Below the pieces are notes generated by a model. It was not told where the DNA came from, ran no database searches, and saw only the letters and a list, made by a program, of their open reading frames with translations. Shown one piece after another: positions 39,201 to 57,557 of a stretch of DNA of 64,000 nt. This DNA is from Methanobacteriota archaeon (lineage in GTDB: Archaea; Thermoplasmatota; E2; DHVEG-1), in contig JAZDGT010000038.1 of NCBI GenBank assembly GCA_043806635.1, positions 14,641 to 78,640 of the forward strand. The letters run 5' to 3'. Numbering within the stretch: the first letter of the stretch is position 1; every line of letters starts with the position of its first letter. Made by a program: the position numbers and the translations under genes.

Positions 39201-40943
39201 ATTAGCTCCTCCAGAAATATTATATGGAGAGTCACCAATGTCATCGGAACCAGTGATATTTTGTCCAGGACCAGAAAAAAGATCATTACCAGTGTAATTA
39301 GACCAATAATTCCCACAAATGGGATAATCAAGATTCCAAACATTTATTGCCGAATCAAAAGCATCTTGGTTATTATCAATAAAATTATTATGATAGATAA
39401 CATTGTTATAAGAAGACCAAATACCAACTCCTAAATCATTTAATCTAATCGTATTATTAAAAACGATATTACGATTTGCTTCAGATAGGTATATCCCCAA
39501 CCCACTATTGGAACTGATATTATTATTTGAAATAATATTATCGTTATTGTTACTAGAATCCTTGAATACTATTCCATGGCCGTTTCCGATAAAAATATTT
39601 TTCTTTATCGTATTATTACTAGAATAAGACCATAAGCCAGCATTCTGATCTAATATGATTTTATTTTCAGTAATCGTACTATCATTTGAATTTGACAGTA
39701 ACCAGATACCAATTGAAACATTAACCGTATTTTGAATTGTAAATTCTGAGATAGTAACGTATTCGGCGGAAATTGAGATGACCGTATAACCATTTTTTCC
39801 ATCAATAATTGTTGTATCTTTATCTTCACCCCGAAGAGTTATAGTCTTATTAATAATGATATTTTCAGTATACATCCCATGATAAACAAAAATAGTATTA
39901 CCTGATGTGGCATTATTGATGCCTTCTTGAATCGTTCGAACATGTGTCTTATCATACCATTCAAGTAATCCATTGCCATCAACAAAGATATCAATTAATG
40001 AATCTGAAGGCCAAGGATCCATTAAAGGATAATTATCTTGATTATTTCCACCCGCTACATTATATGAAGTGTCACCAAATCCATCAGCACCGGTTGCATT
40101 TTGTCCAGGGCCTGAAAAAAAATCCTTGCCAGTGTAATCGGACCAATAATTTCCGCCCCCTGATGAATATCCATTGTCCCAAGTGTTCGTATTATCATCA
40201 TATGCATTTTCAGTGTTATTGATGAAGTTATTATGATAAATTATATTTCCCGTACTGCCCAAAATATTTAGACCATTTTGATTAAAGGAGATACTGTTTC
40301 CGATAAAACTATTGAAATTTGAAGATGATTCAAGTCTTATGCCATAATGAGTATTGTTAAGAATAATATTTTTTTGCAAAATATTGTGAGTTGAAAGTCT
40401 TAATCTAATTCCATTTCTACAATTAACAATAATATTTTCAGAAACAGTAGTATATTGAGGATGGTGCATCTCGATTCCAATTTCACCATTCTCAATTACA
40501 TTCCCAAAAAAATTATTATAATCCGAACCCCACATGAAAACAGTTGAATATAAAGTATATCCCAGGGTTCTAATCGTAAATCCACTAACATTTACATTAT
40601 CTTCTCTGATATTGAGGACATAAGTACCACCACTATTAATTATTGTGTTATCTTTATTCTCGCCAATTAAATTAATTGATTTGGTTATAATTAAATGCTC
40701 ATTATAAGTTCCGTTAAATACAAAAATCGTATAACCATCTACTGCATCGTCAATTGCAGATTGAATACTAGTATAGTTATTTGGTCCACTTCCCCCAACA
40801 TATAATGTTTGTCCACGATCTAATAAAAATAATTTATCCGCATTGGTTTCAATTTTTTGTATACTTGCGACAACCGTTGATCCTAATAATATCGCTATTA
40901 TACTGAAAACCAAACATATTCCATATCGGTTATTTTTATTCAT
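33201..40943 (-). CDS. Giant secreted surface/adhesin-like protein 2 (about 2580 aa)
   Basis: Start MNKNNRYGICLVF at 40943 is preceded by GGGGGAAAAAGA. Three beta-helix tracts. An 8-bladed PQQ/BamB-like beta-propeller (~36740-37760). Three FN3-like units (~35870-36730). One DUF2341-like plus LamG-like module (~34695-35690). Same C-terminal module as giant 1. Confidence 0.85.
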   Translation of the reverse strand: MNKNNRYGICLVFSIIAILLGSTVVASIQKIETNADKLFLLDRGQTLYVGGSGPNNYTSIQSAIDDAVDGYTIFVFNGTYNEHLIITKSINLIGENKDNTIINSGGTYVLNIREDNVNVSGFTIRTLGYTLYSTVFMWGSDYNNFFGNVIENGEIGIEMHHPQYTTVSENIIVNCRNGIRLRLSTHNILQKNIILNNTHYGIRLESSSNFNSFIGNSISFNQNGLNILGSTGNIIYHNNFINNTENAYDDNTNTWDNGYSSGGGNYWSDYTGKDFFSGPGQNATGADGFGDTSYNVAGGNNQDNYPLMDPWPSDSLIDIFVDGNGLLEWYDKTHVRTIQEGINNATSGNTIFVYHGMYTENIIINKTITLRGEDKDTTIIDGKNGYTVISISAEYVTISEFTIQNTVNVSIGIWLLSNSNDSTITENKIILDQNAGLWSYSSNNTIKKNIFIGNGHGIVFKDSSNNNDNIISNNNISSNSGLGIYLSEANRNIVFNNTIRLNDLGVGIWSSYNNVIYHNNFIDNNQDAFDSAINVWNLDYPICGNYWSNYTGNDLFSGPGQNITGSDDIGDSPYNISGGANQDNYPLMMPWGIIPPADIYVDDNADPTWYNETHVRTIQEGINRASIHDIIYVHTGTYNENVIVNKTINLIGEDKNNTIIDGSRDTVMRIISPMVIVSGFTIQNGGDTMDDSGIFIASDSNIIIDNIVNNTETNIEIVNSSYNIVSGNIVGFNTDGKGASNMCGIVLDHSFFNVVEDNRFEYIATPICIINSNNNEIQNNIILDLCEGLYIESSSNLTIVNNLFNHSGIIIRGESIDHFTTHTIENNYVNFKPIRYYKNQNNLVVPNDAGQVILANCTNITIEDLDFSGTVVGVQLHFCSFSTIRENTFGDNLWAGCFVSNSHHNFIYNNVINNVIWYSGIMLMNSSNNSIYRNICAVNGSGYGFNIYNSEDNKLFENLVVNNYVGMYFRSSNNNIIYHNNFINNTINANIFSGLGNNLWDDGYPSGGNYWDDYNGSDLFSGPNQNMNYSDGIGDTPYNISGGVNQDRYPFMQPYGWNEPEIDWWSMFHHDQYHSGYSTSTAPETNTVIWNYSAIISIYSSPATVNNKVYFGSSNNRVYCLNASTGEQIWTYGTYDCVDSSPVVYKGKVYIGSDDGHLYCLNASTGDWIWQYTTNHVVWSSPTVADEKVYFGSNRALYCINASTGAKIWNYTIGFTIYSSPAVANGKVYIGSDDNNVYCFNATTGEKIWNYTTGGDVTSSPAIANGKVYIGSYDHNVYCLNATTGAKIWNYNTFDWIHSSPAVVDGKVYIGSASYKVYCLNASTGEQIWNYTTGASISSSPAVADGKVYIGSYDHNVYCLNATTGEKIWNYTTGFTVYSSPAVANGKVYVGSRDSKLYCFGPYENFPPRVPNNPNPANESTDVRTNSILTWNGGDPNHGDSCTYDVFLGVTPSVQKVSSNQTQTTYTPGILNFNTTYYWRIIAWDMYNASTIGPLWHFTTKQDSPPTQPSNPHPINNSINISFNTDLSWSPSTDPDYGDTITYDVCFGTTNPPQKNVSNQTSTMYDPGLLLSGTTYYWRIIAWDNHNVSTRSPLWCFTTDHPPYQPSNPHPDNHTINVDVEANLNWIGGDPDMGDRVTYDVYFGTINPPLKMVSNQTTTTYNPETMNYNTTYYWQITAWDKSPDNLSTSGPIWWFKTIDITPPEWRNQGQNHTLVPPGTYNSLYSQGRDNAGLDYAYLSTNESGYWFNYSGGEWWNTNWRYQKPILINHTLIPGSLTDFPVFISTTSPNFINHAQENGNDFVFIDQTNTVQLNHEIESYNSTTGELVVWVKVPFLSPTTDTVLYLYYGNPNCANQENSEGAWSNGYAMVHHLDGVGIPNLKDSTSNHWDITSAGGNPLFNQPGKIGTCVDFDGVNDYLKADAFQLLTDGSHTASAWVYVDGNAGQRKYLFESHSDVSVSLLVWTNETFKARTRTASSVPVCYSHTAVNPSNPQWYYVCSRVNADTNLLDIFVNGVYEAGTFFTGTVNPATGFDIGMSNLNSYWMNGKIDEIHVSNSARNNTWIRTEYNMITQPTVFTSVGDETKSVYAYGSPMDLYTGPGEWVWTNFTWQNPEIPNGTTVGWRIFYVDLSGNKNCTPVLSFQIGIPTPIIINGYCSYRNGYEVNPVNVEIINLNAGLHWMADTNGNYYSLELLRDTQITVGDVLRIIARDQNESVNVTDYITTVSDFEEGIITINPVLDIHYRDLKHFPYYLSQVNSGAMVMKQMMDYLMWNSTIYPQPQDLYSEQTIYNNYSGGDWINTSELCSGLNTEINDYQNGWIYGYFFSPSAQDQALDALKSAVIWLDYNISGSNEHRLVDVPKLGHPYHVPIAVPTGGNYNHWMTIRGIHTNRSMWDSSVPGDHHLINGPITIYGFWMNDPSTGGLGENTYVTAEYFTTAYFQPLNTPGDYYNNKYVVITDPPQNSPPVDTTLLTLNTANPQGFTKDEIKQVQTTQKNKQTTQLNTIYISKAQQLVHDVLRYDPTELDQTFTESTVLKTPTYKGNTVIIIFNHPNGTVFTVSLNKTTGELKQFSINEKNQIKK
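33241..34505. repeat. 3'-terminal repeat copy B, shared by the two giant genes
   Basis: See copy A. The encoded C-terminal ~340 aa (from DIHYRDLK to the end) are roughly nine-tenths identical by eye. Confidence 0.8.
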
Positions 40944-41015
40944 TCTTTTTCCCCCGATTAAGATAGAGATAAGATACAATAACTACTCATAAATATAAAC
41001 TTTTGTAATAAAAAT

Positions 41016-43290: not shown

Positions 43291-43621
43291 GTTAGCGGGT
43301 GTAGAAACCCCTTAAGTGGACGCACGTGCCATCTACTGACTACCCATCTGCGTTCTCAACCCCGTTAACCCTCTGAGCATCAGTAGTCTATGGTAAGGTT
43401 GCTCACTTCCGTGCCTCGCCCGGTTCCCACAGCAAAGACGCGACACATACTCCTCCGAGTATGCATCATCGTCACCCCTAATCCCAAAGGACAAGGTTTC
43501 ATAGGTAACAAATGGATCAATAGATGATCGTTACATCGCCTCGCAGATTCGACCCCAGCATATCGGCGATTTCTGGTTACAGGGAACGCCTAGCTCCCCG
43601 GTCTATTCTACACCTATCGCC
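43291..43621 (-). ncRNA. Signal recognition particle RNA (archaeal 7S RNA)
   Basis: The reverse complement contains CCCTGTAACCAGAAATCGCCGATATGCTGGGG (5' domain) and GGGAACCGGGCGAGGCACGGAAGTGAGCAACC (helix 8 with GGAA tetraloop and AGCA). Both closely resemble archaeal SRP RNA as I recall it. The 5' GGTGTAGAA pairs with the 3' TTCTACACC. An ATTTTTAT T-run follows the 3' end. The ends are approximate. Confidence 0.8.
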
Positions 43622-43631
43622 ATTTTCCTTT

Positions 43632-43922
43632 TCACCATGATCGTAACATAATAATCCGCAGATTCCTAAAGAACTGGAAGAAAATCAACGCGAACGCGAT
43701 CGACAAAAACGCGATATCACGACCAACATACAACCACGCCGTCGACAACAAATCACCAGCCCGGCCACTCGCCGCAAGCTTCCCCGCCTGATACGAATCC
43801 AGGATCAAGAACACAATACACAAAGCAATCACAACAAACAAGATAATATTAATATAGAATGATAGCCTGTTCCACGTCTTCTTCTCCATCGGATGAGCCC
43901 AACTCTCCGCCATACACATCAA
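43632..43922 (-). CDS. Small membrane protein (2-3 TM), hypothetical
   Basis: Hydrophobic segments INIILFVVIALCIVFLIL and IAFLSIAFALIFFQFF. No recognised motif. Confidence 0.4.
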   Translation of the reverse strand: MMCMAESWAHPMEKKTWNRLSFYINIILFVVIALCIVFLILDSYQAGKLAASGRAGDLLSTAWLYVGRDIAFLSIAFALIFFQFFRNLRIIMLRSW

Positions 43923-44128
43923 CCCTTGAAATATACAGGAGCATAAACTAATAGATATAAGAAAGTTATGATTCGTTCCAACCCCTTCCTAAGAAGCATT
44001 GAAGACCGTGGTATTCGCCCTTTTCTGTATATCAGCATATATTGATGAACTATGCAAACAACATATTCTTTTTTTTTATTTTTTATCATCCGTCACTTTC
44101 TTATACCGGCTCATACATTAAATCAATC

Positions 44129-44431
44129 ATGCTCACATCCAACAGTATCACAAAGATGCTGACTCAACATCAAAAAGAAATCCAACAATACGGCGTAAAA
44201 CGAATCGGGTTATTCGGTTCATATACAACAAATAACCACCATCGGAAAAGCGATATCGATATCCTCGTGGAGTTTCAAAAAGGAAAAAAAACGTTTGATA
44301 ACTACATGGAGTTAAAATTTTTTTTAGAAAAACTATTCAACCGCCCCGTTGACCTGGTCGTAAAAGAAGCACTAAAACTGGAGTTGAAACCTTCGATTTT
44401 AAAGAGTGTACGCTATGCCACGGGATTTTAG
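44129..44431 (+). CDS. Minimal nucleotidyltransferase (MNT) antitoxin of an MNT/HEPN pair
   Basis: GLFGSY...SDIDILVEF nucleotidyltransferase motif. About 100 aa from MLTSNS. Overlaps the HEPN gene by 17 nt. Confidence 0.8.
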   Translation: MLTSNSITKMLTQHQKEIQQYGVKRIGLFGSYTTNNHHRKSDIDILVEFQKGKKTFDNYMELKFFLEKLFNRPVDLVVKEALKLELKPSILKSVRYATGF

Positions 44432-44755
44432 CATCTTTCTCAAAGACATCCAGAATGCTATTCACCGAATCGACAAATACACCAAAGGTCTTTCATATGA
44501 AGAATTCTGCGAAAACCAGTTAATACAAGATGGGGTAGTACGGAATCTTGAAATCATCGGAGAAGCAGTAAAACATATCCCCAAAGAAGCACAAAATACC
44601 CTCAGATTGAATGGAAAAAGATAGCAGGATTACGAGATATACTTATACATGCGTATTTTGGGGTTGATCGAGGTATCGTCTGGGATATCATTAAAACCAA
44701 AACCCCGGTACTGAAGAAACAAGTTAGATTGATTTTGAACCAGAGAAAAAAATAA
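44415..44755 (+). pseudogene. HEPN (DUF86) toxin gene with a 1-nt frameshift in an A-run (~44593-44596)
   Basis: The first frame reads MPRDFSIFLKDIQNAIHRIDKY...RNLEIIGEAVKHIPKEAQ and then stops at 44622-44624. A shifted frame continues [33 protein letters not shown]...RKK to a stop at 44753-44755. The R-x4-H RNase motif lies downstream of the shift. Confidence 0.75.
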
Positions 44756-44836
44756 GAGTGATCTTCCGCGAGAGATAATCAATACAGATACGATATACGG
44801 GTGCTGATTTTTAAAAAAGATTATTGATTTTTTATA

Positions 44837-44880
44837 GAACAAACCCTTAAATAACAGGAGCAATATTGATTACTCTGGGG
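44837..44880 (+). promoter_or_regulatory. Conserved promoter/leader copy 1 of the small-protein family
   Basis: GAACAAACCCTTAAATAACAGGAGCAATATTGATTACTCTGGGG recurs almost unchanged at 47498-47543. It contains a TTAAATAA TATA-like box. The match is out of frame relative to the two ATGs, so the conservation is at nucleotide level. Confidence 0.55.
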
Positions 44881-44889
44881 AAAAGAGTT

Positions 44890-45297
44890 ATGCGGAAGAT
44901 ACTTACAATAGGAAGTATCGTAGCGGTTATAATTCTTGTTCTTACAACGTATCCATCGATTGTTAGTGCGCAAACAATTAAATCTGAAAATACAAAACAA
45001 GAAAAATTACCCACTATTTTACATTTATTAAGAACGAAATCAACTGTGCAATTTGGAGAAGGAATTTCGTTAATTATTCTTGCAATAAAATTTGCAATTT
45101 TTTTTATTATCTCACTTTTTTATTCTACTTTGGGAGCTATTGATCTTTTTACTTCACTCACTAATGCAGGAGTTTTAGGCGCATTGTTTATTATTTTAGT
45201 GACTCCACCTTTATGGTTATTAATATTTGTAGAGGCATTTTTAAACGCTCTCTTCGGATTAGCTTTTTCAGAAGGAAGTGGTTATTACTATCCGTAG
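44890..45297 (+). CDS. Small secreted/membrane protein family, member 1 (135 aa, multi-TM tail)
   Basis: MRKILTIGSIVAVIILVLTTYPSIVSAQTIKSEN signal peptide, then about 3 hydrophobic helices. Confidence 0.65.
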   Translation: MRKILTIGSIVAVIILVLTTYPSIVSAQTIKSENTKQEKLPTILHLLRTKSTVQFGEGISLIILAIKFAIFFIISLFYSTLGAIDLFTSLTNAGVLGALFIILVTPPLWLLIFVEAFLNALFGLAFSEGSGYYYP

Positions 45298-45313
45298 AAA
45301 TTTATGGAGGAAT

Positions 45314-45529
45314 ATGAACAAGAAAATCTTCATCGGAACAACCCTTGCTGTCATCATCGTGTTTGCGAGATTCAGTACTTTAGCAAGTGCACAATCAACT
45401 TCATTAAAAGACTCTCTATTAACTAAAATCAAAGCGAAGATTGATTGGAAACCAGGAGATATTATAGGTTCTATTCTCGGATTGATTGGTCTTATATTTT
45501 TAATTCTATTTGGTTGGATGTTCCCATAA
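45314..45529 (+). CDS. Small secreted/membrane protein family, member 2 (71 aa)
   Basis: MNKKIFIGTTLAVIIVFARFSTLASAQSTS signal. K-rich linker IKAKIDWKPGD. C-terminal TM IIGSILGLIGLIFLILFGWMFP. GGAGG lies 5 nt upstream. Confidence 0.7.
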   Translation: MNKKIFIGTTLAVIIVFARFSTLASAQSTSLKDSLLTKIKAKIDWKPGDIIGSILGLIGLIFLILFGWMFP

Positions 45530-45544
45530 ATTAGAGGAGAAGAG

Positions 45545-45811
45545 ATGAAACGCAAGATAATAATCGGAAGTATCGGTGCAATCCTTATAGTTGTGTTAGC
45601 TTCGTTCAGTTCTGTAGCAAGTGCACAAACCATAAAATCAACTGTAGATGAAAAAACCTCTTTAATTCAGAATATTGTAAATAAAAAAGATAATCTGGCT
45701 TCTGGTGGGATTATTCAAATGATTTTAACATTAATCGGTGGATGTATTGGATTAATTTTGTTCTTTTGGTTTTTTTTAATTCTTTACTCGATTGGAGCTG
45801 TGGCGGTTTAA
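45545..45811 (+). CDS. Small secreted/membrane protein family, member 3 (88 aa)
   Basis: MKRKIIIGSIGAILIVVLASFSSVASAQTIKST signal. Linker NKKDNLASGG. C-terminal hydrophobic tail. Confidence 0.7.
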   Translation: MKRKIIIGSIGAILIVVLASFSSVASAQTIKSTVDEKTSLIQNIVNKKDNLASGGIIQMILTLIGGCIGLILFFWFFLILYSIGAVAV

Positions 45812-45824
45812 TAATTGATATAGT

Positions 45825-45860
45825 ATGAAAAGAAAGATAGTAACCGGAAGCATTCTCTAA
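45825..45860 (+). pseudogene. Truncated remnant of a family member (11 codons)
   Basis: ATGAAAAGAAAGATAGTAACCGGAAGCATTCTCTAA = MKRKIVTGSIL-stop. It mimics the start of member 3. Confidence 0.5.
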
Positions 45861-46031
45861 TACCCAGACCAGAACATTATGTTTGAATGTAAAAAGTGTT
45901 AGGTGTAGGCCGTAAGCCTCTTTATCACTCCAGTAAAATAATAAATTTCGATAGTTTAGAAGACGTAATTTTTTTTGTATAGCTAAGTTTTATTAAGCAC
46001 TGTCTGATGACAACATAGCAAGGAGAAAAGA

Positions 46032-46409
46032 ATGGAATTTCAAGTACCGAATGATATTAAAAAATTGAAAGAAAATCTAAAAAAAGGAACTCTCACAGTA
46101 TATGGAATCTCGTCTGTTTTTTGTGGCATTCTCGCATTGTCATTTATTTGGATATCACCTTTTTTTAGTATGTTTCTACCTTTGCCTGAAGGTGTATCTA
46201 TGTATCATACACCGTCTTTAGGTTTTGTTGCCATTGTTCGGTATTTAACCCCAAATTTTGCAGCAGCATCACTCGCTCTTGTTTTTGGAATGCTTGCCTA
46301 TTGGAGAAAAAAACCAAGAGATCATTATGGGAAAATTGGATTTATCCTTGGACTATTTGTAATAATCCTTGGTATATTTCAGTATATAATCGCTTCTTCC
46401 GTTTCTTAA
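46032..46409 (+). CDS. Small polytopic membrane protein (about 4 TM), hypothetical
   Basis: 125 aa. Unrelated to the signal-peptide family but embedded in the array. Confidence 0.5.
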   Translation: MEFQVPNDIKKLKENLKKGTLTVYGISSVFCGILALSFIWISPFFSMFLPLPEGVSMYHTPSLGFVAIVRYLTPNFAAASLALVFGMLAYWRKKPRDHYGKIGFILGLFVIILGIFQYIIASSVS

Positions 46410-46484
46410 AAGCGTCATTCATTAGCACAAAACATGATGTTCTAAAAACATGAAATAATAGAAATGTTTTGATGTAAGAAGCAA

Positions 46485-46622
46485 TTATTTCTTCTTGATT
46501 GTTTTGTAATGATCTATTAATCTCTGAATGACCTCAGAATAAGTTTCTCCTTTTTCCGCAATTTCAAATAGTTGGTCTTTAACATGATCCATTACTCGAA
46601 TTGTCGGCATCTTTGAATCCAT
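46485..46622 (-). CDS. 45-aa ribbon-helix-helix/VapB-like putative antitoxin (below the ORF-track length cutoff)
   Basis: My translation is MDSKMPTIRVMDHVKDQLFEIAEKGETYSEVIQRLIDHYKTIKKK. The pattern TIrV.d.vk..L......GEtySdvI.rLi resembles the archaeal small putative-antitoxin family as I recall it. Confidence 0.45.
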   Translation of the reverse strand: MDSKMPTIRVMDHVKDQLFEIAEKGETYSEVIQRLIDHYKTIKKK

Positions 46623-46662
46623 AGGATTTTTAGAAGGCAACATTTTCTATTAGAGAGATAAT

Positions 46663-46740
46663 ATGAATAAGAAAATCCTCATCGGAACTATCCTTACGAT
46701 AATAATTTTGTTATGTTTGATTTTTCAGCCTCGCCCATAA
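46663..46740 (+). pseudogene. Truncated remnant of a family member (25 codons)
   Basis: MNKKILIGTILTIIILLCLIFQPRP-stop. It has the family n- and h-regions but terminates before the cleavage site. Confidence 0.5.
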
Positions 46741-46832
46741 GATTCTTTTATAACAGTGTCGAACTAAAAATCTAATTATTGTTACAAAGGGTTAAATATC
46801 ACTTGTTATTTTGTATTATGTAGGGAGGATTC

Positions 46833-47129
46833 ATGAAAGGAAGAATACTTCTCATCGGAAGTGTATTAATTACATCATATTTGTTGATGATTTTGCCATC
46901 TGTTTCTGCAATTGAACATAACACAGTTATAGAAAAAAATAAATTCGAGCTTCTTGAAGAATTGAAGGATAAAATAAAAGATGGTGGTCTAAGCTTCGAT
47001 AATGAACTAATTAGAATTCTACTGATATTTTCAGTATTTTATGTATTATATAGAATTACAATGTATATAATTGGAATTCTTATTGGTAATACACCACCAT
47101 CAACACCAAGTAGACCATCACCAGCATAA
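46833..47129 (+). CDS. Small secreted/membrane protein family, member 4 (98 aa)
   Basis: MKGRILLIGSVLITSYLLMILPSVSAIEHN signal. Linker LKDKIKDGGLS. TM region. Pro/Ser/Thr tail GNTPPSTPSRPSPA. GGGAGG upstream. Confidence 0.65.
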   Translation: MKGRILLIGSVLITSYLLMILPSVSAIEHNTVIEKNKFELLEELKDKIKDGGLSFDNELIRILLIFSVFYVLYRITMYIIGILIGNTPPSTPSRPSPA

Positions 47130-47214
47130 TTTCATAATTTAAGAAGGATAAATGTGTTAGACTGGTATCCATGGCAACCAGGCGATTAATTTTACATCCT
47201 GGATATATTTGAGC

Positions 47215-47454
47215 ATGAACAAAAAGATAATCATCGGAATCACCCTTGCCGTCATCATCGTGTTAGCGGGATTCAGTTCGGTAGCAAGTGCTCAAACAAT
47301 AAAATCAAATACGTTTTTTCAACAGATAAAAGATAAAATTGAAAATAAAGATTGGTATCCAGGAGAAATTATATTGAATGAGATTATGGCAGGTATTATT
47401 GTTTATCTTGCATTACTTTTTATGATGATATTTAAATTTCCATTGGTATTTTAA
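47215..47454 (+). CDS. Small secreted/membrane protein family, member 5 (79 aa)
   Basis: MNKKIIIGITLAVIIVLAGFSSVASAQTIKSNT signal. Linker IKDKIENKDWYPGE. C-terminal TM. Confidence 0.7.
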   Translation: MNKKIIIGITLAVIIVLAGFSSVASAQTIKSNTFFQQIKDKIENKDWYPGEIILNEIMAGIIVYLALLFMMIFKFPLVF

Positions 47455-47497
47455 TTAATATTATAATCTTTTTTTTCTTCGAAACTCTTCAAAATTG

Positions 47498-47543
47498 GAA
47501 CAAACCCTTAAATAAAAGGAGTAACATTTGATTACTATTGGGA
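47498..47543 (+). promoter_or_regulatory. Conserved promoter/leader copy 2 of the small-protein family
   Basis: GAACAAACCCTTAAATAAAAGGAGTAACATTTGATTACTATTGGG. Compare 44837-44880. Confidence 0.55.
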
Positions 47544-47550
47544 AGGTTTT

Positions 47551-47784
47551 ATGCGGAAGATACTTGCAGTAGGAAGTATCCTACTTGTTTCCATCCTAAT
47601 TCTTACTTCATATTCGTCTGTAGTTGAGGCAAGAAATATTCCGGATAATCGAAACCAAATAAATGATATTAGAGATTTATTAAGAAATTTAATTGATTTT
47701 TTAGAGTATCTATTTGGTATAATTCCTCTATTTATTTTTGGTTTATTATGGATTCTTTCTGGTTTTCGCGGTCCTATAGTTTGA
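47551..47784 (+). CDS. Small secreted/membrane protein family, member 6 (77 aa)
   Basis: MRKILAVGSILLVSILILTSYSSVVEARNIPDN signal, then an amphipathic linker and a C-terminal TM. Confidence 0.65.
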   Translation: MRKILAVGSILLVSILILTSYSSVVEARNIPDNRNQINDIRDLLRNLIDFLEYLFGIIPLFIFGLLWILSGFRGPIV

Positions 47785-47806
47785 TAAAAAAGAAAATGTT
47801 GGGAAT

Positions 47807-48070
47807 ATGAACAAGAAAATCCTCATCGGAAGCATCGTAGCACTTCTGCTTATCTTTCTTACGTGTACCTCTGTTGTAAATGCTCGAACGATAAAAATAA
47901 ACGATCTCAAACAACAACAGAAGATAATACCAGATAATCTCGCTGGGGGAACCATCCTACGAGCATTGTTTAACCTACTCCTTGGATTCCTCGCAGGCGT
48001 CGGGTTCATCACCACCGCTATTATCCTCTATCTCTGGTTAATTATACTCTCCGCATTACATAGTTATTGA
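47807..48070 (+). CDS. Small secreted/membrane protein family, member 7 (87 aa)
   Basis: MNKKILIGSIVALLLIFLTCTSVVNARTIKIND signal. Linker PDNLAGG. Hydrophobic tail. Confidence 0.7.
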   Translation: MNKKILIGSIVALLLIFLTCTSVVNARTIKINDLKQQQKIIPDNLAGGTILRALFNLLLGFLAGVGFITTAIILYLWLIILSALHSY

Positions 48071-48082
48071 GAAAAGAAAACC

Positions 48083-48352
48083 ATGCACAAAAAAAACGTT
48101 ACCATATCCATACTCATAACTGCAATACTACTTATCATAACAATGAACTCAGTAGTCTATGCAAAATGCATAAACAAGGATACGGTAATACACATCATCA
48201 CGACCCTACAGAATAAAAAAGATGAAGCAGGGAGCATGTTTCGATTCTTCTTCTTCCTCCTCGGTTTCATATTAGGGGTAGGATACATAGTTAAAATAAT
48301 CATGTTCATCCTCGAAATCTTTCTCCACATCCTCGATGGATATTCATACTAA
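48083..48352 (+). CDS. Small secreted/membrane protein family, member 8 (89 aa)
   Basis: MHKKNVTISILITAILLIITMNSVVYAKCINKD signal. Linker NKKDEAGS. Hydrophobic tail. Confidence 0.6.
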   Translation: MHKKNVTISILITAILLIITMNSVVYAKCINKDTVIHIITTLQNKKDEAGSMFRFFFFLLGFILGVGYIVKIIMFILEIFLHILDGYSY

Positions 48353-48366
48353 AACAAAATACGTAA

Positions 48367-51300
48367 TCAAAAAAAATCAGAAAGCTTCGTCACCTTCACC
48401 CGATCACTCATAAACAACGAATCAATAGACTTCTCAACAAGCGCGATCCGCTGACACGCATACTCCGGGAGATGATACTTCAACGCGATCTCCTTCGAAA
48501 TATTCAAATACTTTTTCACCGACATCTCATGCACCGTAAGCGTAAGCCTCCCCTCGCACTGCGAACACACCCCCTGCAGAGGAATACGACGAAACGTCAC
48601 ATTACACGTTGGACAACGAACCGACTGCTTACTAAACGCACGAAGATTCCCCAAGATATCCGGCAGGAAATGCCGCTCAATCACCTTATACGCCACATCC
48701 GCCTCATCCACCGGCCGAAGCTTCGCTGCAAGCGTCAACTGCGTATTCATCTTCTCCATCATCGTCTTCAACGTCTTATACAACGACTCCTTCGGACCCG
48801 CAGACACATCAAACGTATCATGCGTAAACCCGAACTGCTCAAACTGAAGCTCAGTCCCAATCCGAGAGGACACTAAACCCATCACCGACTCAAGGTTCTT
48901 CGGATGCTCATGCTTCAACGACGCCTCATACAACGCCAACGGATACCGAGACAACGTATCAATATTATGCGCCTCCTTATCCACCTCCGCAGGATCAAGA
49001 CGTGTCGTCAGAATCAACGGCAGATCCATACGACCACCCCGCTTATCAGGAATATATGCATGCGAAAAATTCAACAACGCATCCATAAGCAACATCTGAC
49101 CATCTTCATCTCCATCGCAATTTTTTGAGAGAAGAGCATCATTAATAAGGAAATTATGTAGATCCTCCACTTCAACATCATACACGTACCCTGAATCAAC
49201 ATACACCGGGTGAATCTCCTTCACCGCATCAAGAACATAATCACCAACCCGTCCCACACGAGGTTTCCGCTCCTTCATCAAAACGGATTCCAATGCCTGC
49301 TGTTTCCTTCGAAGAGCAAACCCTATCTGTTGCGCGAACACGCGCGCAAACGAGGAACGAATATCCAACGTAAACAATTCAAAAACTCGGGTTTGATGTT
49401 TCTTCTCATAAAAGGTTTTTGCTAATCCTCCCGCTGGCTTATGCTCCTCACGAATCCGATAAAATATCCCAAAACGAAGCAACTGAAACCCGATATCCTG
49501 AAGGAGATCACGATCAACAGAACAACACGTAACATGAAGCCGGTTTTTCTCCACTGACCCATCACCAGCAAAATACGCCCGCAACAACCCACGAATCTTA
49601 TACAACGGCAGAGCTGTGAATCGGCAAGGAACACGTTTCGTCTTCGCATTCTTCCCAACACAAAGAATCCGACTAAAGAAATCATGAATCAACCTACTAG
49701 ACATCGCTATCCCATGATCATCGACGTAGGCATGAACATGAAAAACCTCATGGATACAATCAACAATATCCGCGCGGATCTCTTTCTCCGTCACAGCAAA
49801 CCCGACCTGATAACAATTCTTAGTGGTGTACCTGGTATGACCCTCAGCAAGATAATACCCAAGCAACCGCATGAATGCCTCATTCACCGGGATGAACCGT
49901 GGTATCCTCGTATCGTCTCGCTTCACACCCAAGAAACAATCCCGCGGAATAGACTCACGATTCTGACCACACAAATCAAGGACTTGGAAAAGAATAGTGA
50001 GAGGGATACTATCACGATACAGATAATCGGAGAACGTTTTCTTATTCAACTGTAATTTCTGTGATATCGCTTGCAATCCACCTGCTTGTTTGATACATTG
50101 TTGAACCAGATCATGAACACCTCGCACAACGAGATCATCATACAGACCAGTCTGGAAAAACTCAGAGAGAAGATCGATCTCCACCACATCATTCTCAGGG
50201 ACAGCGATGTTCTGAGACACCAAGAGTTTATCGTCCTTAGTCACCTGGATTATTTTCTTTGTCACCGCAGCATCCTCTGACCAGACCACCATGCGATGCG
50301 CAGGAGATGATACAAACGATCTCCCCGACTGCAACGTCACATGGACAAGATGATGTGGTGCCCGTGTTTTCATGACAGAGGTTATCTTTTTAATCTCAGT
50401 CTTCCCTGTGAGCGGATTAAAAGCGAACGTGCGTAAGTTACTGACTTGTTTCGCGGTTGTTCCGAAATCATCAACAACTCTCTCTGATGATGATGTACGA
50501 TTATAAATTTCTTGGAGTGGTAACATAGCAGGTTTCCCTGAGTCAAGGACATGAATCCGGGTCTCCGGTGAAAGACAATTTCTTCGTTTCGCTGCATGAT
50601 AAAACGGGTGTGAGAAGCATACCTGTGCATTGGTAAAACCAATAATTCTTCCAAGAGCACCTGCGGAGGTATGCGGCGCAAGTCCAACTACGAGATGACC
50701 AGTGAGATCCTCCAGTGTTTTAATTTTATAGAACGCATCCATTTTGTAGTATTTCATGAGGAGGTCATCGATGAAGCGGCTTATTTGGACGAAATATTCG
50801 GCGCATGATTTCGCAACAATCACGTCTTGAACCCTGAGTTCGCAGATCTGATCATCATGCTCGAGCTCGTTTCCTAGATAATCGTTCGTGTACCCTAATT
50901 CTTTGATTCTTTTCAGTGATACTCCAAGCTCATGGGGTTTGAAGTGGGTGAGCGGTGCATCCGTCATGTCGAAACGGCTGGTTCCGTCTTTGAAGACGTA
51001 CACGTTGTGTTTCGCTCTGAGGAGTCCTTTCTCGAGGGGTTCTGGTGTTTTGTTTTTGGAGATGGTGCCGATGACTCCTTTGATCGTCTCTGGGAGATCC
51101 CGTTCTTTTAATGCTTGTTTCGCTCGTTGAAGCTCCTCTGTAAGATTTATGGTATGTGTTTTTATTCGTCCGTTTGACGTCAGGGTGTGTGTTCCGCAGG
51201 CGCAGGTGACTTTGTAGGTTCTTTTCCCGCATGTTGGGCAGTGTCGGTCTCCGGCTTCGATTTCGATCTCGGTTTTTTCTGCTGCTGTCCTGAAGAGTCG

Positions 51301-53265
51301 TTGGTTTCCCCCATAGTTGCCAAGGGGGAAGAGGACGTGTGGTGGTGGTCGCATTTTTCGTGCTGCTGCTTTCTCTGGTCGTCCCATCCTGGCTCCGATG
51401 CGGAATGGTGCGCGGGCGTTGATGGGTATGCCTGCGAGTTGTGAGACGAGCGTTACTGGGTTTTCCTCGTTATTCGTAGTGAGGAGTGGGTATCGTGATG
51501 TTTCAATGATTGTGTTGTCGGTGATGTCGAGGCCGCTGCAGCGGATGAGCGGGTACGCGTATCGATCTATGAGGAGGGTTTCTTCTCGTTGGGTGTGGAG
51601 TGCTCCGAGTTCGATGAGGATGTCTTTGATGTGTTGGTTGAATGGTAACGATAGTTTCGGTTGGTTTGTTTCATCGTTGGTTATGGTTCCTCGTTCTTTG
51701 ATATATTGTGCGAGGGTGACGATGTCGGTTCGTTGGAGGTCGTGCCAGAACAGGTTATAGTGGGGGTGAAGGGGTATCTGATATTTTTCTGAGAGGAGGA
51801 ACGCATCCTTCTGTGTTGGTTCTATTAGGGTGATTTCTCTCTGGAATGTGTCGTTTATGGTTTTTTGTGTTTGTTCATCTGCTTGGACGATATCGTTCAT
51901 CGTATAGGTTTTCGGGAGGCAGGATACTGCTTTTTGGAGGTCCTGTATCCACCATTCATACACGTAACTTGAATCCGGAAGGAGGGCGTTGTTCTCCATG
52001 AACTCACCGTAGGGGATGAGTATTTCTCCGAGGTCGATGATGCGTTTTACTTCGCCTTTGAGGTCTTGTATGTTGTTGATTTGGACGAGATCATTATTCT
52101 CCAGTAATACAATTGGTCCTTCGATTTGGTCGCAGGGCGTCCCGATGGTTCCTTTCCCTGGTCGTTCAATCTTCATCTGGGTTCCGACGGTGATGAAACT
52201 ATCAACGATGTACATAGTTGCGGGGTTGATCGCGGTGGATGCTAGCCCGCCGGTGCGTGCGCGTCCGTAGCGGAGTCTGAAGCCTCCTTTTTTTGAGGGG
52301 TGGCTGAGGACTGGTCTTCCTGCGATGACTTCGCCGATGTATTTGGATGAGGGTGGGATTTGGGGGATGTCGCCGATTTGTTGTTCTTGTGTGGTGCCTT
52401 TGTTGACGAAGGTTTCGAGGAACTCCCAGCCTTTCAATTTGAGTTTTTTGATGTGTTTATGGATTTTTGGTGCTTTGAGACAGAGTCCTTCAGCAATAAC
52501 AAGGCAGGCGCCGCCGCGGAGGCGGTTGGTTCCGGCACGGGGTAGGTCGCGGTACCCGGTGACTTCTTCATCCTCGGTTCCTTCTCCGTTTATGCAGATT
52601 GGGCAGTTCTTCACCACGAGTTCGATTTCATCAACCGTGGGGAGGTACTGGAGATGCTGTACTCGTTTGTAGAGGGGGATTTCTTCTTTGTATCGTTCGA
52701 TCTCACCGAACGTGGGTTGGTAGCCGCCGATGTTGAGTTCCCTGCGAACAATATCCGCGATGAGGACACTCATCGCTTGACCAGTTCCTCCCGCGCTTCG
52801 AATCGGTCCTGAGAAAAACAAATCAACGTATGATGAACCGTCTTTGTTCCTGCCGAGTTTCACATCAGCGATGCCTTCGAGTGGTGCGACAAGTACTCCC
52901 TCGGTTAAGATGGCAAGGCCGGTTCGTATGGCTTGATCCAGTGCTTGTTCCACCTTAGAAAACTGATACGTTGTTCCTTTCGCGATTTCTCGTGCGATCT
53001 CGATGGAGACGAGTTCTCGGTTCCCTAGTTTTTTTGTTGCGGCACGGATCTTCGGTGCAATATCTTTTGGTCCAACAAGTTGTTCTACACGTGCTGCGAG
53101 ATCAAGAGCCTGCGGTATCTCAACAGTGCATTCAGGGTCTAACCCTTTCTTCCTCGCTAGTTCTGCAACCGCATAACAGGCATCGATTTCTTGTTGTAAC
53201 CGGGTGAAGTACGCCTGCATCATTGGGCTCGCTGCGATAGAATTGGATATACCCCCGTCAACCAT
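48367..53265 (-). CDS. polC: DNA polymerase II (PolD) large subunit DP2, containing an intein
   Basis: Collinear with archaeal DP2. The exteins join as ...HPFYHAAKRRN + CDGDEDGQMLLMDALLNFS. Zn modules CPTCGKRTYKVTCACG and CPTCN...CSQCEG. Confidence 0.95.
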   Translation of the reverse strand: MVDGGISNSIAASPMMQAYFTRLQQEIDACYAVAELARKKGLDPECTVEIPQALDLAARVEQLVGPKDIAPKIRAATKKLGNRELVSIEIAREIAKGTTYQFSKVEQALDQAIRTGLAILTEGVLVAPLEGIADVKLGRNKDGSSYVDLFFSGPIRSAGGTGQAMSVLIADIVRRELNIGGYQPTFGEIERYKEEIPLYKRVQHLQYLPTVDEIELVVKNCPICINGEGTEDEEVTGYRDLPRAGTNRLRGGACLVIAEGLCLKAPKIHKHIKKLKLKGWEFLETFVNKGTTQEQQIGDIPQIPPSSKYIGEVIAGRPVLSHPSKKGGFRLRYGRARTGGLASTAINPATMYIVDSFITVGTQMKIERPGKGTIGTPCDQIEGPIVLLENNDLVQINNIQDLKGEVKRIIDLGEILIPYGEFMENNALLPDSSYVYEWWIQDLQKAVSCLPKTYTMNDIVQADEQTQKTINDTFQREITLIEPTQKDAFLLSEKYQIPLHPHYNLFWHDLQRTDIVTLAQYIKERGTITNDETNQPKLSLPFNQHIKDILIELGALHTQREETLLIDRYAYPLIRCSGLDITDNTIIETSRYPLLTTNNEENPVTLVSQLAGIPINARAPFRIGARMGRPEKAAARKMRPPPHVLFPLGNYGGNQRLFRTAAEKTEIEIEAGDRHCPTCGKRTYKVTCACGTHTLTSNGRIKTHTINLTEELQRAKQALKERDLPETIKGVIGTISKNKTPEPLEKGLLRAKHNVYVFKDGTSRFDMTDAPLTHFKPHELGVSLKRIKELGYTNDYLGNELEHDDQICELRVQDVIVAKSCAEYFVQISRFIDDLLMKYYKMDAFYKIKTLEDLTGHLVVGLAPHTSAGALGRIIGFTNAQVCFSHPFYHAAKRRNCLSPETRIHVLDSGKPAMLPLQEIYNRTSSSERVVDDFGTTAKQVSNLRTFAFNPLTGKTEIKKITSVMKTRAPHHLVHVTLQSGRSFVSSPAHRMVVWSEDAAVTKKIIQVTKDDKLLVSQNIAVPENDVVEIDLLSEFFQTGLYDDLVVRGVHDLVQQCIKQAGGLQAISQKLQLNKKTFSDYLYRDSIPLTILFQVLDLCGQNRESIPRDCFLGVKRDDTRIPRFIPVNEAFMRLLGYYLAEGHTRYTTKNCYQVGFAVTEKEIRADIVDCIHEVFHVHAYVDDHGIAMSSRLIHDFFSRILCVGKNAKTKRVPCRFTALPLYKIRGLLRAYFAGDGSVEKNRLHVTCCSVDRDLLQDIGFQLLRFGIFYRIREEHKPAGGLAKTFYEKKHQTRVFELFTLDIRSSFARVFAQQIGFALRRKQQALESVLMKERKPRVGRVGDYVLDAVKEIHPVYVDSGYVYDVEVEDLHNFLINDALLSKNCDGDEDGQMLLMDALLNFSHAYIPDKRGGRMDLPLILTTRLDPAEVDKEAHNIDTLSRYPLALYEASLKHEHPKNLESVMGLVSSRIGTELQFEQFGFTHDTFDVSAGPKESLYKTLKTMMEKMNTQLTLAAKLRPVDEADVAYKVIERHFLPDILGNLRAFSKQSVRCPTCNVTFRRIPLQGVCSQCEGRLTLTVHEMSVKKYLNISKEIALKYHLPEYACQRIALVEKSIDSLFMSDRVKVTKLSDFF
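49120..50577 (-). mobile_element. Intein with a LAGLIDADG homing endonuclease in PolD DP2
   Basis: Starts CLSPETRIHVLDSG (Cys1 codon 50577-50575). SSPAHR (block B). LLGYYLAEGHT and LLRAYFAGDGSV. Ends ...NDALLSKN (Asn codon 49122-49120), followed by the +1 Cys of CDGDED. 1458 nt = 486 codons. Confidence 0.9.
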
Positions 53266-53354: not shown

Positions 53355-55058
53355 TTAAGTGATTGGTTGGCTGAAATCCATCGTGGTCGCGTTCCCTGTT
53401 TTCAGATCAACGATGGGGAGTTTAGCAGAGTCTGGAATAAAATTCAGCATCTTCTGATACGTGGTCTGCGCCTGCCAGCTTGACGCATTAATCATCGTGA
53501 CACCGCGGTAATCAGCGAGCGCTGCGAGATGAACATGCCCAGTGACGAAGATATCGGGGACGCGATCAATAATCATGTAGTCCATATGCTCCGGGGCAAG
53601 CGGCGTATACCCGCCGTACGTGGGTGCGAGATGACGTTTCCTCAACATCAATTTCATGATCTCGAGGGGTTCATTGTATTTGAGCTGCGGGATGTTCGTC
53701 GCGAAATCCAGCAGACTTTGCCCATGATACGAGAGGACTTCCACCCCATGAACTGAGAAATAGCAGGGGTTCGCCGCGAAGACGACGTCGTTCCCGGAGA
53801 ACAACTGTTGTATTTCTTTCTCAAACGCGGGTTGCGGCTCCGCGGGTCGGACTGCGTCATGGTTCCCCGGCTGTATAAGAATAGTGATATAGTCCGGGAT
53901 GAGTTGGAACTGTTGCGCGAGTGCCTCGTATTGGCGGTAGATGTCGCGGATCGAGAGTTCCTTTTCCTGGTTCGGGTAGATGCCGATCCCGTCGACGAGA
54001 TCACCAGGGACGATCAGGTATTTTATTTTCCCTGCCACATCTTTTTGTCGCGTATTCCCCAGGTTCCCATTAATCCATTTCAGAAAACTATGCCATTGGT
54101 CCTCAAGAAACATTTTACTACCGATGTGGATGTCGGAGAGGAATGCGGCGTGGACTGGTACTTCTGCTTTCTGTTTATTATGCTGGATACTGATATCAGG
54201 GAAGACGATGTTTTGGATGATGAGCAGGTCACCGTTTTTACTGAGTTTACTAGTGACACCGATGATTTCATCGAGGACGACTTCGGAGGCGAGCTGTAAA
54301 GCATCCGGGTTGGTTTTCAACGCGATCAATGGTGCAGTACCGGTTTCATCTTCGAGTTCTATGAGGCGATGACCATGTGAGGTCGTCCGAACGTTTTTCA
54401 CGATGCCGATGAGTTGGACATCGTTTGTACCACTTTTTTTGATCCGGTTAATGGGGAGGACGTTTGCGAGTTCTCTGCGCTGGGTCTGAAGTATTTTCCG
54501 GATGACGGTGTATCGGTATTTGAAGAGTTTCGCGAAATCCTGCGTGGTTCCTTCGCAGGTGCTTTTCCCGCTGACATCTTTGATGATGCGCAGCTCAGCA
54601 TGATATTCTTTGGCGAGTGGTTTCCATCCTTTTATTTTTTTGATTTCGACGGGGTGCAGATCTGGTTCTTGTGTACCGTTGGTTTCCGAGAGTTGATCAT
54701 CTTTATCAGGATCATCGTCTTCTTCTTCGTCGTCTTCGTCTGTTTTCGGACGTAGATTTCCACTGTAGAGTTTGGTGAGGAGGATGCGTTGGATCTGTTT
54801 TTCTTCTTCGGTTTGTTGTCGTGTCTTTTCTGTTTCCTCAGAGGGTTTCTCTGATATGAGTGGTGGTGTTTCTTGGGGTTTTGTGTGTTCTTCGATGGTC
54901 AGTATATGGTCCATGGTGAGGATGAGCGGGTATTCCTTCAGGTTTTTGAGGAGGGTTTCCGCGAATTCTCTGGGTTTCTCCTTGTTTTGGATATAGGTCA
55001 CAGCATCTGGTTGAATAAAGGTGCCATGTTCTGAGAATAAATGGAGTACTGATTTCAT
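53355..55058 (-). CDS. polB: DNA polymerase II (PolD) small subunit DP1 (exonuclease)
   Basis: C-terminal calcineurin-like phosphoesterase motifs (FLSDIHIGS, VPGDLVDG, PGNHD, GHVH). OB-fold region. Acidic linker DEDDEEEDDDPDKDD. ATG 55058 (MKSVLHLF) preferred over TTG 55088. Confidence 0.9.
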   Translation of the reverse strand: MKSVLHLFSEHGTFIQPDAVTYIQNKEKPREFAETLLKNLKEYPLILTMDHILTIEEHTKPQETPPLISEKPSEETEKTRQQTEEEKQIQRILLTKLYSGNLRPKTDEDDEEEDDDPDKDDQLSETNGTQEPDLHPVEIKKIKGWKPLAKEYHAELRIIKDVSGKSTCEGTTQDFAKLFKYRYTVIRKILQTQRRELANVLPINRIKKSGTNDVQLIGIVKNVRTTSHGHRLIELEDETGTAPLIALKTNPDALQLASEVVLDEIIGVTSKLSKNGDLLIIQNIVFPDISIQHNKQKAEVPVHAAFLSDIHIGSKMFLEDQWHSFLKWINGNLGNTRQKDVAGKIKYLIVPGDLVDGIGIYPNQEKELSIRDIYRQYEALAQQFQLIPDYITILIQPGNHDAVRPAEPQPAFEKEIQQLFSGNDVVFAANPCYFSVHGVEVLSYHGQSLLDFATNIPQLKYNEPLEIMKLMLRKRHLAPTYGGYTPLAPEHMDYMIIDRVPDIFVTGHVHLAALADYRGVTMINASSWQAQTTYQKMLNFIPDSAKLPIVDLKTGNATTMDFSQPIT

Positions 55059-56761: not shown

Positions 56762-56770
56762 ACTTATTCC

Positions 56771-57433: not shown

Positions 57434-57557
57434 GAATACAATCCCCCGTCACACAATGCTGACATGTTTTTATTCTTTTTTAATAAATACCATAAGCTTT
57501 TAAAAAACAATATGATTACCCTGCGTAATAAAATATCGTATAAGGGAGGACGAAAAA

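Follow-up and report, generated by a model that had tools for sequence, protein, structure and literature searches.

The archaeal contig JAZDGT010000038.1 (assembly GCA_043806635.1, a metagenome-assembled genome (MAG) labelled Methanobacteriota archaeon at NCBI and assigned to Thermoplasmatota) carries a tandem array of small genes that belong to a real, coherent and undescribed protein family, which is rare and restricted in lineage. The window denotes here the whole stretch of 64,000 nucleotides (nt) of this contig that was analyzed (locus tags V1726_05295 to V1726_05335). Eight intact open reading frames (ORFs) on its plus strand, called w1 to w8, encode proteins of 71–135 amino acids (aa) and were found where a first-pass annotation, made from the sequence alone, had placed them. 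The array is specific to the lineage and deviates in composition, having been inserted into a neighborhood of replication genes that is otherwise conserved. We consider it probable that the family represents accessory surface micro-proteins that are exported via Sec and anchored in the membrane, with genes that belong to the flexible genome.

To gauge the extent of the family, 1.84 billion cluster representatives were searched exhaustively with an HMMER profile, a check that the first-pass annotation had itself proposed. The search identified 197 proteins at E ≤ 1e-3, including 25 at E ≤ 1e-10. Nearly all of the 197 representatives are 70–110 aa long, and the matches are mostly full-length. 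Among 5.8 billion proteins, a word-indexed search retrieved little besides the window's own, and a locus search with a narrower alignment (A4) returned four metagenome loci. At least one further family member is present on another contig of the MAG from which the window was taken (V1726_04310). The idea that the array genes are spurious ORFs was rejected, since they are conserved across about 200 clusters and putative ribosome-binding sites are present. No evidence supports an antisense ORF of 121 aa over w2 and w3 (45268-45633, minus strand), which probably arises only as a side effect of the coding strand.

The family has a clear sequence signature. The signal peptide reads M-x-K-K-I-L-I-G-S-x-x-A-V-I-I-V-L-A-S-F-S-S-V-(A/V)-S-A, then Q-T, and is followed by an ecto-helix with the signature (F/I)-Q-Q-I-(K/R)-D-(K/R)-I-x-N and, further downstream, by W-x-P-G, about 24 hydrophobic residues and frequently a C-terminal Pro. 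W-x-P-G was found in 76 of 158 sequences, as compared to 0.6 expected from shuffles, and the W, P and G are each at least 90% conserved in alignment A3. Among the 60 short members with W-x-P-G, the W lies a median of 24 residues past the cleavage site, and the median from the G to the C-terminus is likewise 24 residues. Pro is present among the last five residues in 39 of these members, and the ecto-helix motif Q-x-[IMLF]-[KRQ]-... in 31 of 60. One profile match, P0032 (1,665 aa), was rejected as an unrelated repetitive protein, the score of which is the sum over eight repeated hydrophobic stretches. A few other matches, similar in the signal peptide only, come from a different family, which has an 'SPLF-x-IR' motif; the mature parts were therefore tested separately, as described below. 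This second family is larger (P0011, P0112, P0113, P0117 and positions 11133-11747 of locus L052) and has a near-identical signal peptide that ends in ...SVVG(Y/F), continuing with 'SPLF-x-IR' and a C-terminal hydrophobic helix; one of its members ends the array in L052.

Within the window, all array genes are on the plus strand. The first gene, w1 (44890-45297, 135 aa), is a long member with a signal peptide and three hydrophobic segments (hidden Markov model (HMM) E-value 1.4e-18). It is followed after 16 nt by w2 (45314-45529, 71 aa), which has a DWKPGD hinge and GGAGG upstream, and by w3 (45545-45811, 88 aa), in which ASGG replaces W-x-P-G as the hinge. The divergent w4 (46833-47129, 98 aa) has a DGG hinge and a Pro/Ser/Thr-rich tail, and its HMM E-value of 4.8e-19 is driven by the signal peptide. 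The protein nearest to the family consensus is w5 (47215-47454, 79 aa; FFQQIKDKIENKDWYPGE). The short MRKIL-type w6 (47551-47784, 77 aa) is a paralogue of w1, as seen from the DNA repeats D5, D7 and D15, and is followed by w7 (47807-48070, 87 aa), with LLGFLAGVGF and a long hydrophobic helix, and w8 (48083-48352, 89 aa). Three relics on the same strand translate exactly as first described. Two of them are 5' relics, one reading MKRKIVTGSIL before a stop codon (45825-45860, repeat family D4) and one a signal peptide of 25 aa, MNKKILIGTILTIIILLCLIFQPRP, likewise ending in a stop codon (46663-46740, repeat family D2, with 79% identity to the 5' end of w2). The third is an internal relic with two hinge motifs, VLDWYPWQPGD before a stop codon (47154-47189).

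The homology of the mature parts was tested by cutting the sequences at the cleavage column and scoring the window peptides against the external family as well as against shuffles that preserved the layout. The mature-only similarity exceeded that of the shuffles for six of the eight copies: w2 (best external relative P0026, z 20), w7 (P0037, z 18), w5 (P0015/P0016, z 13.8), w8 (P0071 and P0054, z 8.3), w3 (P0103, z 6.9) and w1 (P0111, z 4.9). The mature parts of w4 (best external relative P0128, z 2.8) and w6 (P0134, z 1.9) showed no significant similarity to other members, and the membership of these two proteins thus rests on the signal peptide, the layout and the position. Homology beyond mere composition, as presumed at the outset, is therefore borne out for six copies, with z values of about 5–20, but not for w4 and w6.

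For each of the well-supported window copies, the highest score was obtained with an external protein and not with another copy of the array. Since the nearest relatives lie in other metagenomes, we conclude that the array is a collection of old subfamilies and not simply the product of recent duplication. Judged by their sequences, w2 and w5 form subfamily A, with w3 as a variant with a GG hinge; w7 and w8 represent subfamilies B and B', which have LLGF-x-x-GVGF (alignment A5); and w1 is a long multi-helix type with w6 as its short paralogue. The gene order B then B' (w7-w8) recurs in locus L045, and a long MRKIL-type member comes first in the window, in L045 and in L048. The recurring order and the long first member argue against simple recent duplication and for sets that have been maintained and probably co-operate. 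The rapid turnover proposed in the first-pass annotation is thus only partly upheld: the relics, a frameshifted neighboring toxin gene and the divergent mature regions are in line with it, but the subfamilies are old and closer to other genomes (w2 to P0026, w7 to P0037, w5 to P0015/P0016), and the w7-w8 order is found again in L045.

The layout of the precursors was analyzed with a custom hydropathy script, which called the signal peptide and the hydrophobic segments and applied the -3/-1 rule. All eight copies displayed a basic N-terminus, a hydrophobic core, (V/A/I)-x-A at residues 24–27 and at least one C-terminal hydrophobic segment. Across the 158 sequences, the cleavage region has Ala at position -1 in 111, Val or Ala at position -3 in 134 and Gln at position +1 in 97. 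The features of a Sec/signal peptidase I precursor, that is a basic n-region, a hydrophobic h-region of about 10–20 residues and small amino acids at -1 and -3, are predicted in 8 of 8 window copies. The N-termini of the family read M-[NKR]-K-K-I-L-I-G, the cleavage site lacks a conserved Cys, and the [KR][GA] site of class III (type IV pilin-like) signal peptides, a lipobox Cys and a twin-arginine motif were all absent on reading the family sequences. The AlphaFold model of w5 (38-sequence alignment, mean pLDDT 77) has helices at residues 3-29, 33-44 and 49-73, and that of w7 (9 sequences, pLDDT 71) at residues 3-27, 31-44 and 49-86. In both models, the signal peptide is followed by a polar helix of 12–14 residues and, after a hinge break of four residues, by a hydrophobic helix (25 residues in w5 and 38 in w7). 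The common plan of signal peptide, hinge and C-terminal hydrophobic helix that had been read from the sequences was thus recovered by the hydropathy script in all eight copies and by AlphaFold in w5 and w7.

The family could not be assigned to anything known, in agreement with the first-pass annotation. The eight proteins gave no significant match in Pfam, NCBIfam, PHROGs or the PADLOC defence-system scan. In PHROGs, 9 of 10 scanned proteins had no match better than E = 0.03, and the best match (w3, E 4e-4) covered the signal peptide only. A sequence search of the PDB likewise returned only a signal-peptide overlap (CusB, E about 0.7), and a Foldseek search of the PDB with the w5 model returned no match. 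Exact look-ups of w3 and P0015 showed that neither is on record, and a search of the literature for such a family yielded no description. The best Pfam scores, all sub-threshold, included those of TrbC (14.7 bits, cutoff 27.9) and DUF4141 (15.4 bits, cutoff 30), and when 38 family members were scanned individually no Pfam family was matched by more than four of them.

The commonest weak match, TrbC/VirB2 (PF04956; 4 of 38 members at E ≤ 0.1, best E 0.038), raises the question of whether the proteins are conjugative pilin subunits of the VirB2/TrbC/Ced type. These pilins are also small, with hydrophobic helices and a long cleavable signal peptide, which in VirB2 is cut at A-x-A before Gln, as predicted here. 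However, the best score is far below the Pfam cutoff, no pilin was found in the PDB by sequence or by fold, and the mature part of subfamily A has one hydrophobic helix only. Genes for a type IV secretion system, VirB4, VirB6 or Ced were found neither near the arrays in L045, L046, L052 and L055 nor among the window ORFs at 25115-40979 and 53355-58082. The pilin identity, which we regard as hardly tenable, is effectively refuted by the missing secretion machinery.

The position of the hinge bears on a different possibility, namely that [PG]G and the tail form a processing signal of the archaeosortase, rhombosortase or rhomboid type, by which a peptide of about 24 aa would be released or lipid-anchored as a signal or surface tag. 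PG or GG is located directly before the helix in six of the eight window copies (w2-w5, w7 and, as a variant, w8), the motif is fixed about 24 residues from the C-terminus, and the ecto-helix motif is found in about half of the short members, as given above. Rhomboid substrates have a type I, N-out topology, which the mature peptides of the family would share. A Pro/Gly motif before a C-terminal helix of about 20 residues, combined with an N-terminal signal peptide, is also the design of the PGF-CTERM/archaeosortase A and GlyGly-CTERM/rhombosortase systems. In comparison with PGF-CTERM, PEF-CTERM and GlyGly-CTERM, however, the family has W-x-P-G or GG rather than PGF and a Pro/Gly/Phe-rich tail, and no NCBIfam model of a C-terminal sorting domain matched any of the eight proteins at E ≤ 1. 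Most members lack a terminal basic cluster (Lys/Arg at least 10 residues past PG in 19 of 60 in subfamily A). Apart from family members, none of the ORFs of 150 aa or more in the sampled loci and the window ends in W-x-P-G and a hydrophobic tail, and the motif was thus not found on large cargo, as it would be for a sorting domain. Finally, units of W-x-P-G and helix are repeated inside longer members such as P0040 and P0080, and W-x-P-G therefore fits better as a structural helix-start motif than as a cleavage tag. We consider a sorting signal decidedly unlikely.

The 5' parts of the genes, both coding and upstream, are more similar to each other than the rest. A putative promoter/leader segment (44837..44889, plus strand), in which the TATA-like CTTAAATAA precedes the w1 ATG by about 40 nt and a purine-rich putative ribosome-binding site is present, has a second copy upstream of w6 (47498..47550, plus strand). 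The duplication, which was noted in the first-pass annotation and is evident here as well, amounts to 90% identity over 31 nt (44837-44867 vs 47498-47528) and, in its downstream part, to 72% over 86 nt (44879-44964 vs 47540-47625). DNA-level paralogy among the array genes reaches 84–86% and is concentrated in approximately the first 80 nt, the part that codes for the signal peptide. Spacers of 12–22 nt with GGAGG-like sites join w1-w2-w3 and w6-w7-w8, and T8 tracts are located 3' of the relic after w3 and 3' of w5. Based on the short spacers, the GGAGG-like sites and the T8 tracts, the array appears to be arranged as two three-gene operons (w1-w2-w3 and w6-w7-w8) plus single genes. In L052, leader segments are duplicated at 8945-9006/10566-10627 (95%, 62 nt) and at 9996-10143/10949-11097 (87%, 149 nt).

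Comparison of the two parts of the coding sequences confirmed distinct levels of divergence. The nucleotide identity between w2 and w5 is 83% in the signal-peptide part and 59% in the mature part, and that between w5 and the external member L001a 90% and 61%, respectively. For w5 and L001a, the proportion of nonsynonymous differences (pN) is 0.05 in the signal-peptide part as compared to 0.36 in the mature part. The proportion of synonymous differences (pS, Nei-Gojobori) ranges from 0.16 to 0.41 in the signal-peptide part as compared to 0.5–0.8 in the mature part. The lower pN and pS of the signal part fit gene conversion of, or nucleotide-level constraint on, a shared 5' cassette, in addition to relaxed purifying selection on the mature part.

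This pattern resembles that of the vsp, vpma and vsa loci of Mycoplasma, which are likewise tandem arrays whose 5' region and signal peptide are conserved far better than the mature part, with duplicated promoter/leader cassettes and sometimes with an adjacent tyrosine recombinase. By analogy, the array could encode a variable coat, in which recombination between conserved 5' cassettes would shuffle expression or copy number. The cassettes duplicated in the window and in L052, the low pS of the signal part (consistent with gene conversion), the 5'-only relics, which fit recombination, and the tyrosine recombinase genes directly beside the arrays in L048 and L055 agree with this idea. However, all copies are on one strand, which rules out switching by inversion. 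Individual putative ribosome-binding sites and promoters precede several genes, most arrays are without a recombinase, and the ectodomains comprise only about 24 aa and lack repeats. The family further differs from the Mycoplasma loci by a signal peptidase I A-x-A instead of a lipobox, by a C-terminal helix anchor instead of an N-terminal lipid, by its single gene orientation and archaeal host, and by the lack of sequence similarity. A variable coat is in our opinion improbable, and more so than a sorting signal.

A conserved leader and a divergent mature part would also be in line with membrane-active toxins, and the first-pass annotation had drawn attention to toxins with immunity partners. 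According to this explanation, the proteins would be Sec-dependent, bacteriocin-like toxins, with the embedded four-transmembrane (4-TM) ORF or the long multi-helix members providing immunity. In addition to the leader conservation (w5 and L001a), the design of polar N-part, hinge and hydrophobic helix recalls the class II bacteriocins, which have a similar design. The Sec-dependent class II bacteriocins of Gram-positive bacteria are also made as small Sec precursors, with a mature peptide of about 45–60 aa and peptide genes located side by side. Small-xxx-small motifs are present (e.g. GSILGLIG in w2), and the genes lie in arrays with conflict-type neighbor genes. The candidate immunity gene (46032..46409, plus strand) encodes an orphan membrane protein of 125 aa outside the family, with several hydrophobic segments (four, according to the first-pass annotation). 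It is present where it had been described, but its only match among 5.8 billion proteins was to itself, its Pfam matches were sub-threshold only, and it was absent from all other arrays examined. A toxin/immunity reading is thus unsupported, because the ORF has no homologue anywhere in the proteins searched. Nor did any transporter, protease, secretion-system or regulator gene recur near the arrays, as would be expected from class II bacteriocins with their immunity, transport and regulatory genes. The strongly hydrophobic C-terminal helix of about 24 aa has stop-transfer length and should remain in the membrane of the producer, the net charge of the ectodomain averages only +0.9, and no toxin or bacteriocin match was obtained in PADLOC, Pfam or NCBIfam, nor is there sequence similarity to class II bacteriocins. 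We regard toxins of this kind as unlikely, although less so than the sorting and coat explanations.

The insertion of the array was evident from a comparison with related loci. The C-terminus of the window's polD is 75–85% identical to that of many uncultured Thermoplasmatota/Thermoplasmatales MAGs, and a scan of one genome per species yielded 41 related loci. In approximately 30 of these, polD, tm96, the signal recognition particle (SRP) RNA gene and MCM are contiguous in this order. The gap between polD and tm96 is only 57–140 nt in the 18 related loci measured, and none of these loci contains a family member. In the window, the promoter box of tm96 (GAATCATAA..TTCTTATATC), which is conserved among the relatives, is still present at the tm96 side, and the w8 stop codon is 14 nt from the convergent polD stop codon. 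Based on the retained box and the position of w8, we conclude that the extra DNA spans approximately 43990-48366, an accessory islet of about 4.4 kb inserted between the polD stop codon and the conserved tm96 promoter, with an approximate left edge (43990..48366). Attachment-site-like direct repeats were sought at the ends of the islet, and none was convincing.

On one side, the islet is flanked by tm96 (43632-43922, minus strand), which encodes a conserved membrane protein of 96 aa without a Pfam match, has tblastn matches in 33 related loci and is usually located directly downstream of polD, and by the archaeal SRP RNA gene (43299-43613, minus strand; Rfam RF01857, 207 bits). On the other side is the gene for DP2, the large subunit of polD (48367-53265, minus strand). 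The location between the SRP RNA and polD was thus as described in the first-pass annotation. The same polD/tm96 intergenic site holds another insertion in locus L027 (10819-12492), which encodes a secreted beta-helix protein of 557 aa, and the site may be an insertion hotspot. The DP2 gene of the window contains an intein of 486 aa (49120-50577, minus strand) between KRRN and CDGDEDG, a site at which L027 and many other relatives are without an intein. The gene for the small subunit DP1 is located at 53355-55088 (minus strand).

The array also deviates from its surroundings in composition, as the first-pass annotation had noted, with a GC content of 0.28–0.34 as compared to 0.45–0.53 in the flanks. 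The GC content at third codon positions (GC3) is 0.16–0.32 in w1-w6, the 4-TM ORF and a ribbon-helix-helix (RHH) ORF, and 0.44–0.48 in w7-w8, while the core genes polD, MCM, DP1 and tm96 range from 0.51 to 0.61. The arrays in L045, L046 and L048 are likewise below their flanks in GC3. Elsewhere in the window, two paralogous genes encode giant secreted proteins of 2,636 and 2,592 aa (25115-33025 and 33201-40979, respectively, both minus strand). These contain NosD/beta-helix, LamG and PKD domains, with a PQQ beta-propeller in the second only; their C-termini are nearly identical, and their GC3 values of 0.33–0.35 are well under those of the core genes.

Tandem arrays of the family recur in other loci (L001-L003, L045, L046, L048, L049, L052 and L055). 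Short contigs with two to five tandem members make up L001-L003. In L045, five members are located between tRNA-Pro and the RNA polymerase D/S11 operon. L046/L047, from the lake-sediment MAG GCA_026394495, contains two members between sulfate-assimilation genes and purQ, with a possibly RHH-like ORF of 78 aa (no Pfam match) divergent from the two. L055, from the same MAG, has a tyrosine recombinase gene divergent from two members. Members follow an RHH gene and a RelE-like ORF in L049, a frameshifted member is found beside MNT/HepT in L050, and six members follow a BsuPI-like protein amid metabolic genes in L052/L053. In L048, the order is AbiEi, AbiEii, three members, a tyrosine integrase and tRNA-Lys; this segment (1-4933) has a compact layout like that of an integrative element, with kptA after tRNA-Lys. 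Toxin-antitoxin modules, integrases and tRNA genes are thus repeatedly found near the arrays.

The order of tRNA-Lys, integrase, array and AbiE in L048 would also be compatible with structural or membrane proteins of an integrated virus or a plasmid remnant, as would the GC3 below that of the host flanks and the inserted state of the window copy. However, no relatives of the family were found in IMG/VR contigs, GenBank phage records or plasmids, the proteins have no significant PHROG match, and none of the loci contains capsid, packaging or replication genes. A viral or plasmid origin of this kind appears very unlikely.

The remaining cargo of the islet consists of an MNT/HepT pair with a frameshifted HepT gene, the orphan 4-TM ORF and a lone RHH ORF. 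The MNT-type nucleotidyltransferase, the antitoxin of the pair, is encoded at 44042..44431 (plus strand; Pfam NTP_transf_2, 1.3e-17), with ATG 44129 as the likely true start. The gene for the HepT (HEPN) toxin at 44406..44755 (plus strand; Pfam HepT-like, 5.3e-12) has a frameshift near 44600-44625. Its N-terminal part matches positions 1-52 of 120 of the Pfam model, while the C-terminal part with RDILIH, a motif of the Rx4-6H type, lies in another frame. The adjacent nucleotidyltransferase and HEPN genes and the motif characterize an MNT/HepT module, but because the motif is in a shifted frame the toxin gene looks inactivated. The MNT/HepT genes in L050 are 83% and 75% identical to those of the window; HepT (842-1195) is split there too, and the pair adjoins the frameshifted family member. 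The RHH antitoxin-like ORF (46485..46643, minus strand; Pfam DUF7557, 3.6e-7, 29.9 bits, cutoff 25; VapB_antitox, 8.7e-5) was also present where it had been reported, but comprises 52 aa from the first ATG and not 45. It has no toxin partner in the islet. In L049 (217-741), an RHH gene 37% identical to that of the window and a RelE-like ORF, called from its sequence, are located directly upstream of the family array, which suggests that the window ORF may be the remnant of an RHH/RelE-like pair.

For the Sec-exported, membrane-anchored surface proteins that we favor, the following sequence of events would apply. A classical signal peptide would route the precursors to the Sec translocon, and signal peptidase I would cut after (V/A)-x-A, usually leaving an N-terminal Gln. 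The product would be a peptide of 45–60 aa with its N-terminus outside and its C-terminus inside. A polar or amphipathic ecto-helix of about 24 aa would lie on the outer face of the membrane, with the hinge (W-x-P-G or GG) at the interface, and a hydrophobic helix of about 24 aa, running to the Pro/Gly-rich C-terminus, would retain the peptide in the membrane of the producer; longer members would have additional helices. Members of different old subfamilies are apparently co-transcribed (w1-w2-w3 and w6-w7-w8, in operons that share the duplicated promoter/leader) and would probably form small hetero-oligomeric assemblies at the membrane surface. Because the genes are accessory and located on a low-GC3 islet with toxin-antitoxin remnants, a role at the cell surface toward outside agents such as viruses, competitors or neighbors, rather than in housekeeping, would be expected.

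Several observations weigh against this interpretation. Signal-peptide cleavage was judged solely from the custom script with hydropathy and the -3/-1 rule. Lys or Arg follows the hydrophobic helix in only 19 of 60 subfamily A members, and the anchor would therefore be weak by the positive-inside rule, so that release or other topologies are conceivable. The giant surface proteins of the window are also low in GC3, and low GC3 may thus mark surface or low-expression genes and not foreign origin. The arrays in L046 and L052 lie amid housekeeping genes with no mobile-element genes alongside, and the integrase in L055 could be a housekeeping recombinase of the Xer type. No conserved partner gene points to a pathway. 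The ratio based on pN/pS in the mature part is 0.2–0.8, with no sign of positive selection, as calculated from few codons near saturation.

The cellular location of these proteins, as predicted from their sequences, can reasonably be inferred. The family as a whole is not surprising in kind, yet it provides a clean and testable way into the small membrane proteins of archaea. A more far-reaching reading is that the family is an archaeal counterpart of the peptide arsenals in which leaders are conserved and mature parts diversified. The peptides would be Sec-exported from toxin-antitoxin-stabilized islets and serve in surface conflict or communication, either as anchored exclusion or competition factors or as signals of about 24 aa freed by intramembrane cleavage at the hinge. 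The conotoxin-type superfamilies similarly conserve the signal part far better than the mature part, in amino acid as well as in nucleotide sequence, but the family described here is prokaryotic, predicted to be membrane-anchored and Cys-free, and its pN/pS-based ratios are below 1. We consider such an arsenal doubtful, if conceivable; if true, it would be a kind of system undescribed in archaea.

Annotation mostly overlooks small membrane proteins, and those of uncultured archaea are hardly known at all. With about 200 cluster representatives, a clear signature, tandem arrays and a flexible-genome context, the family is a candidate for a new protein-family entry. If a function in virus exclusion, competition or signalling is true, its members would represent a new class of archaeal surface effectors; otherwise, the family would still be useful as a marker of variable islets in the genomes of Thermoplasmatota.

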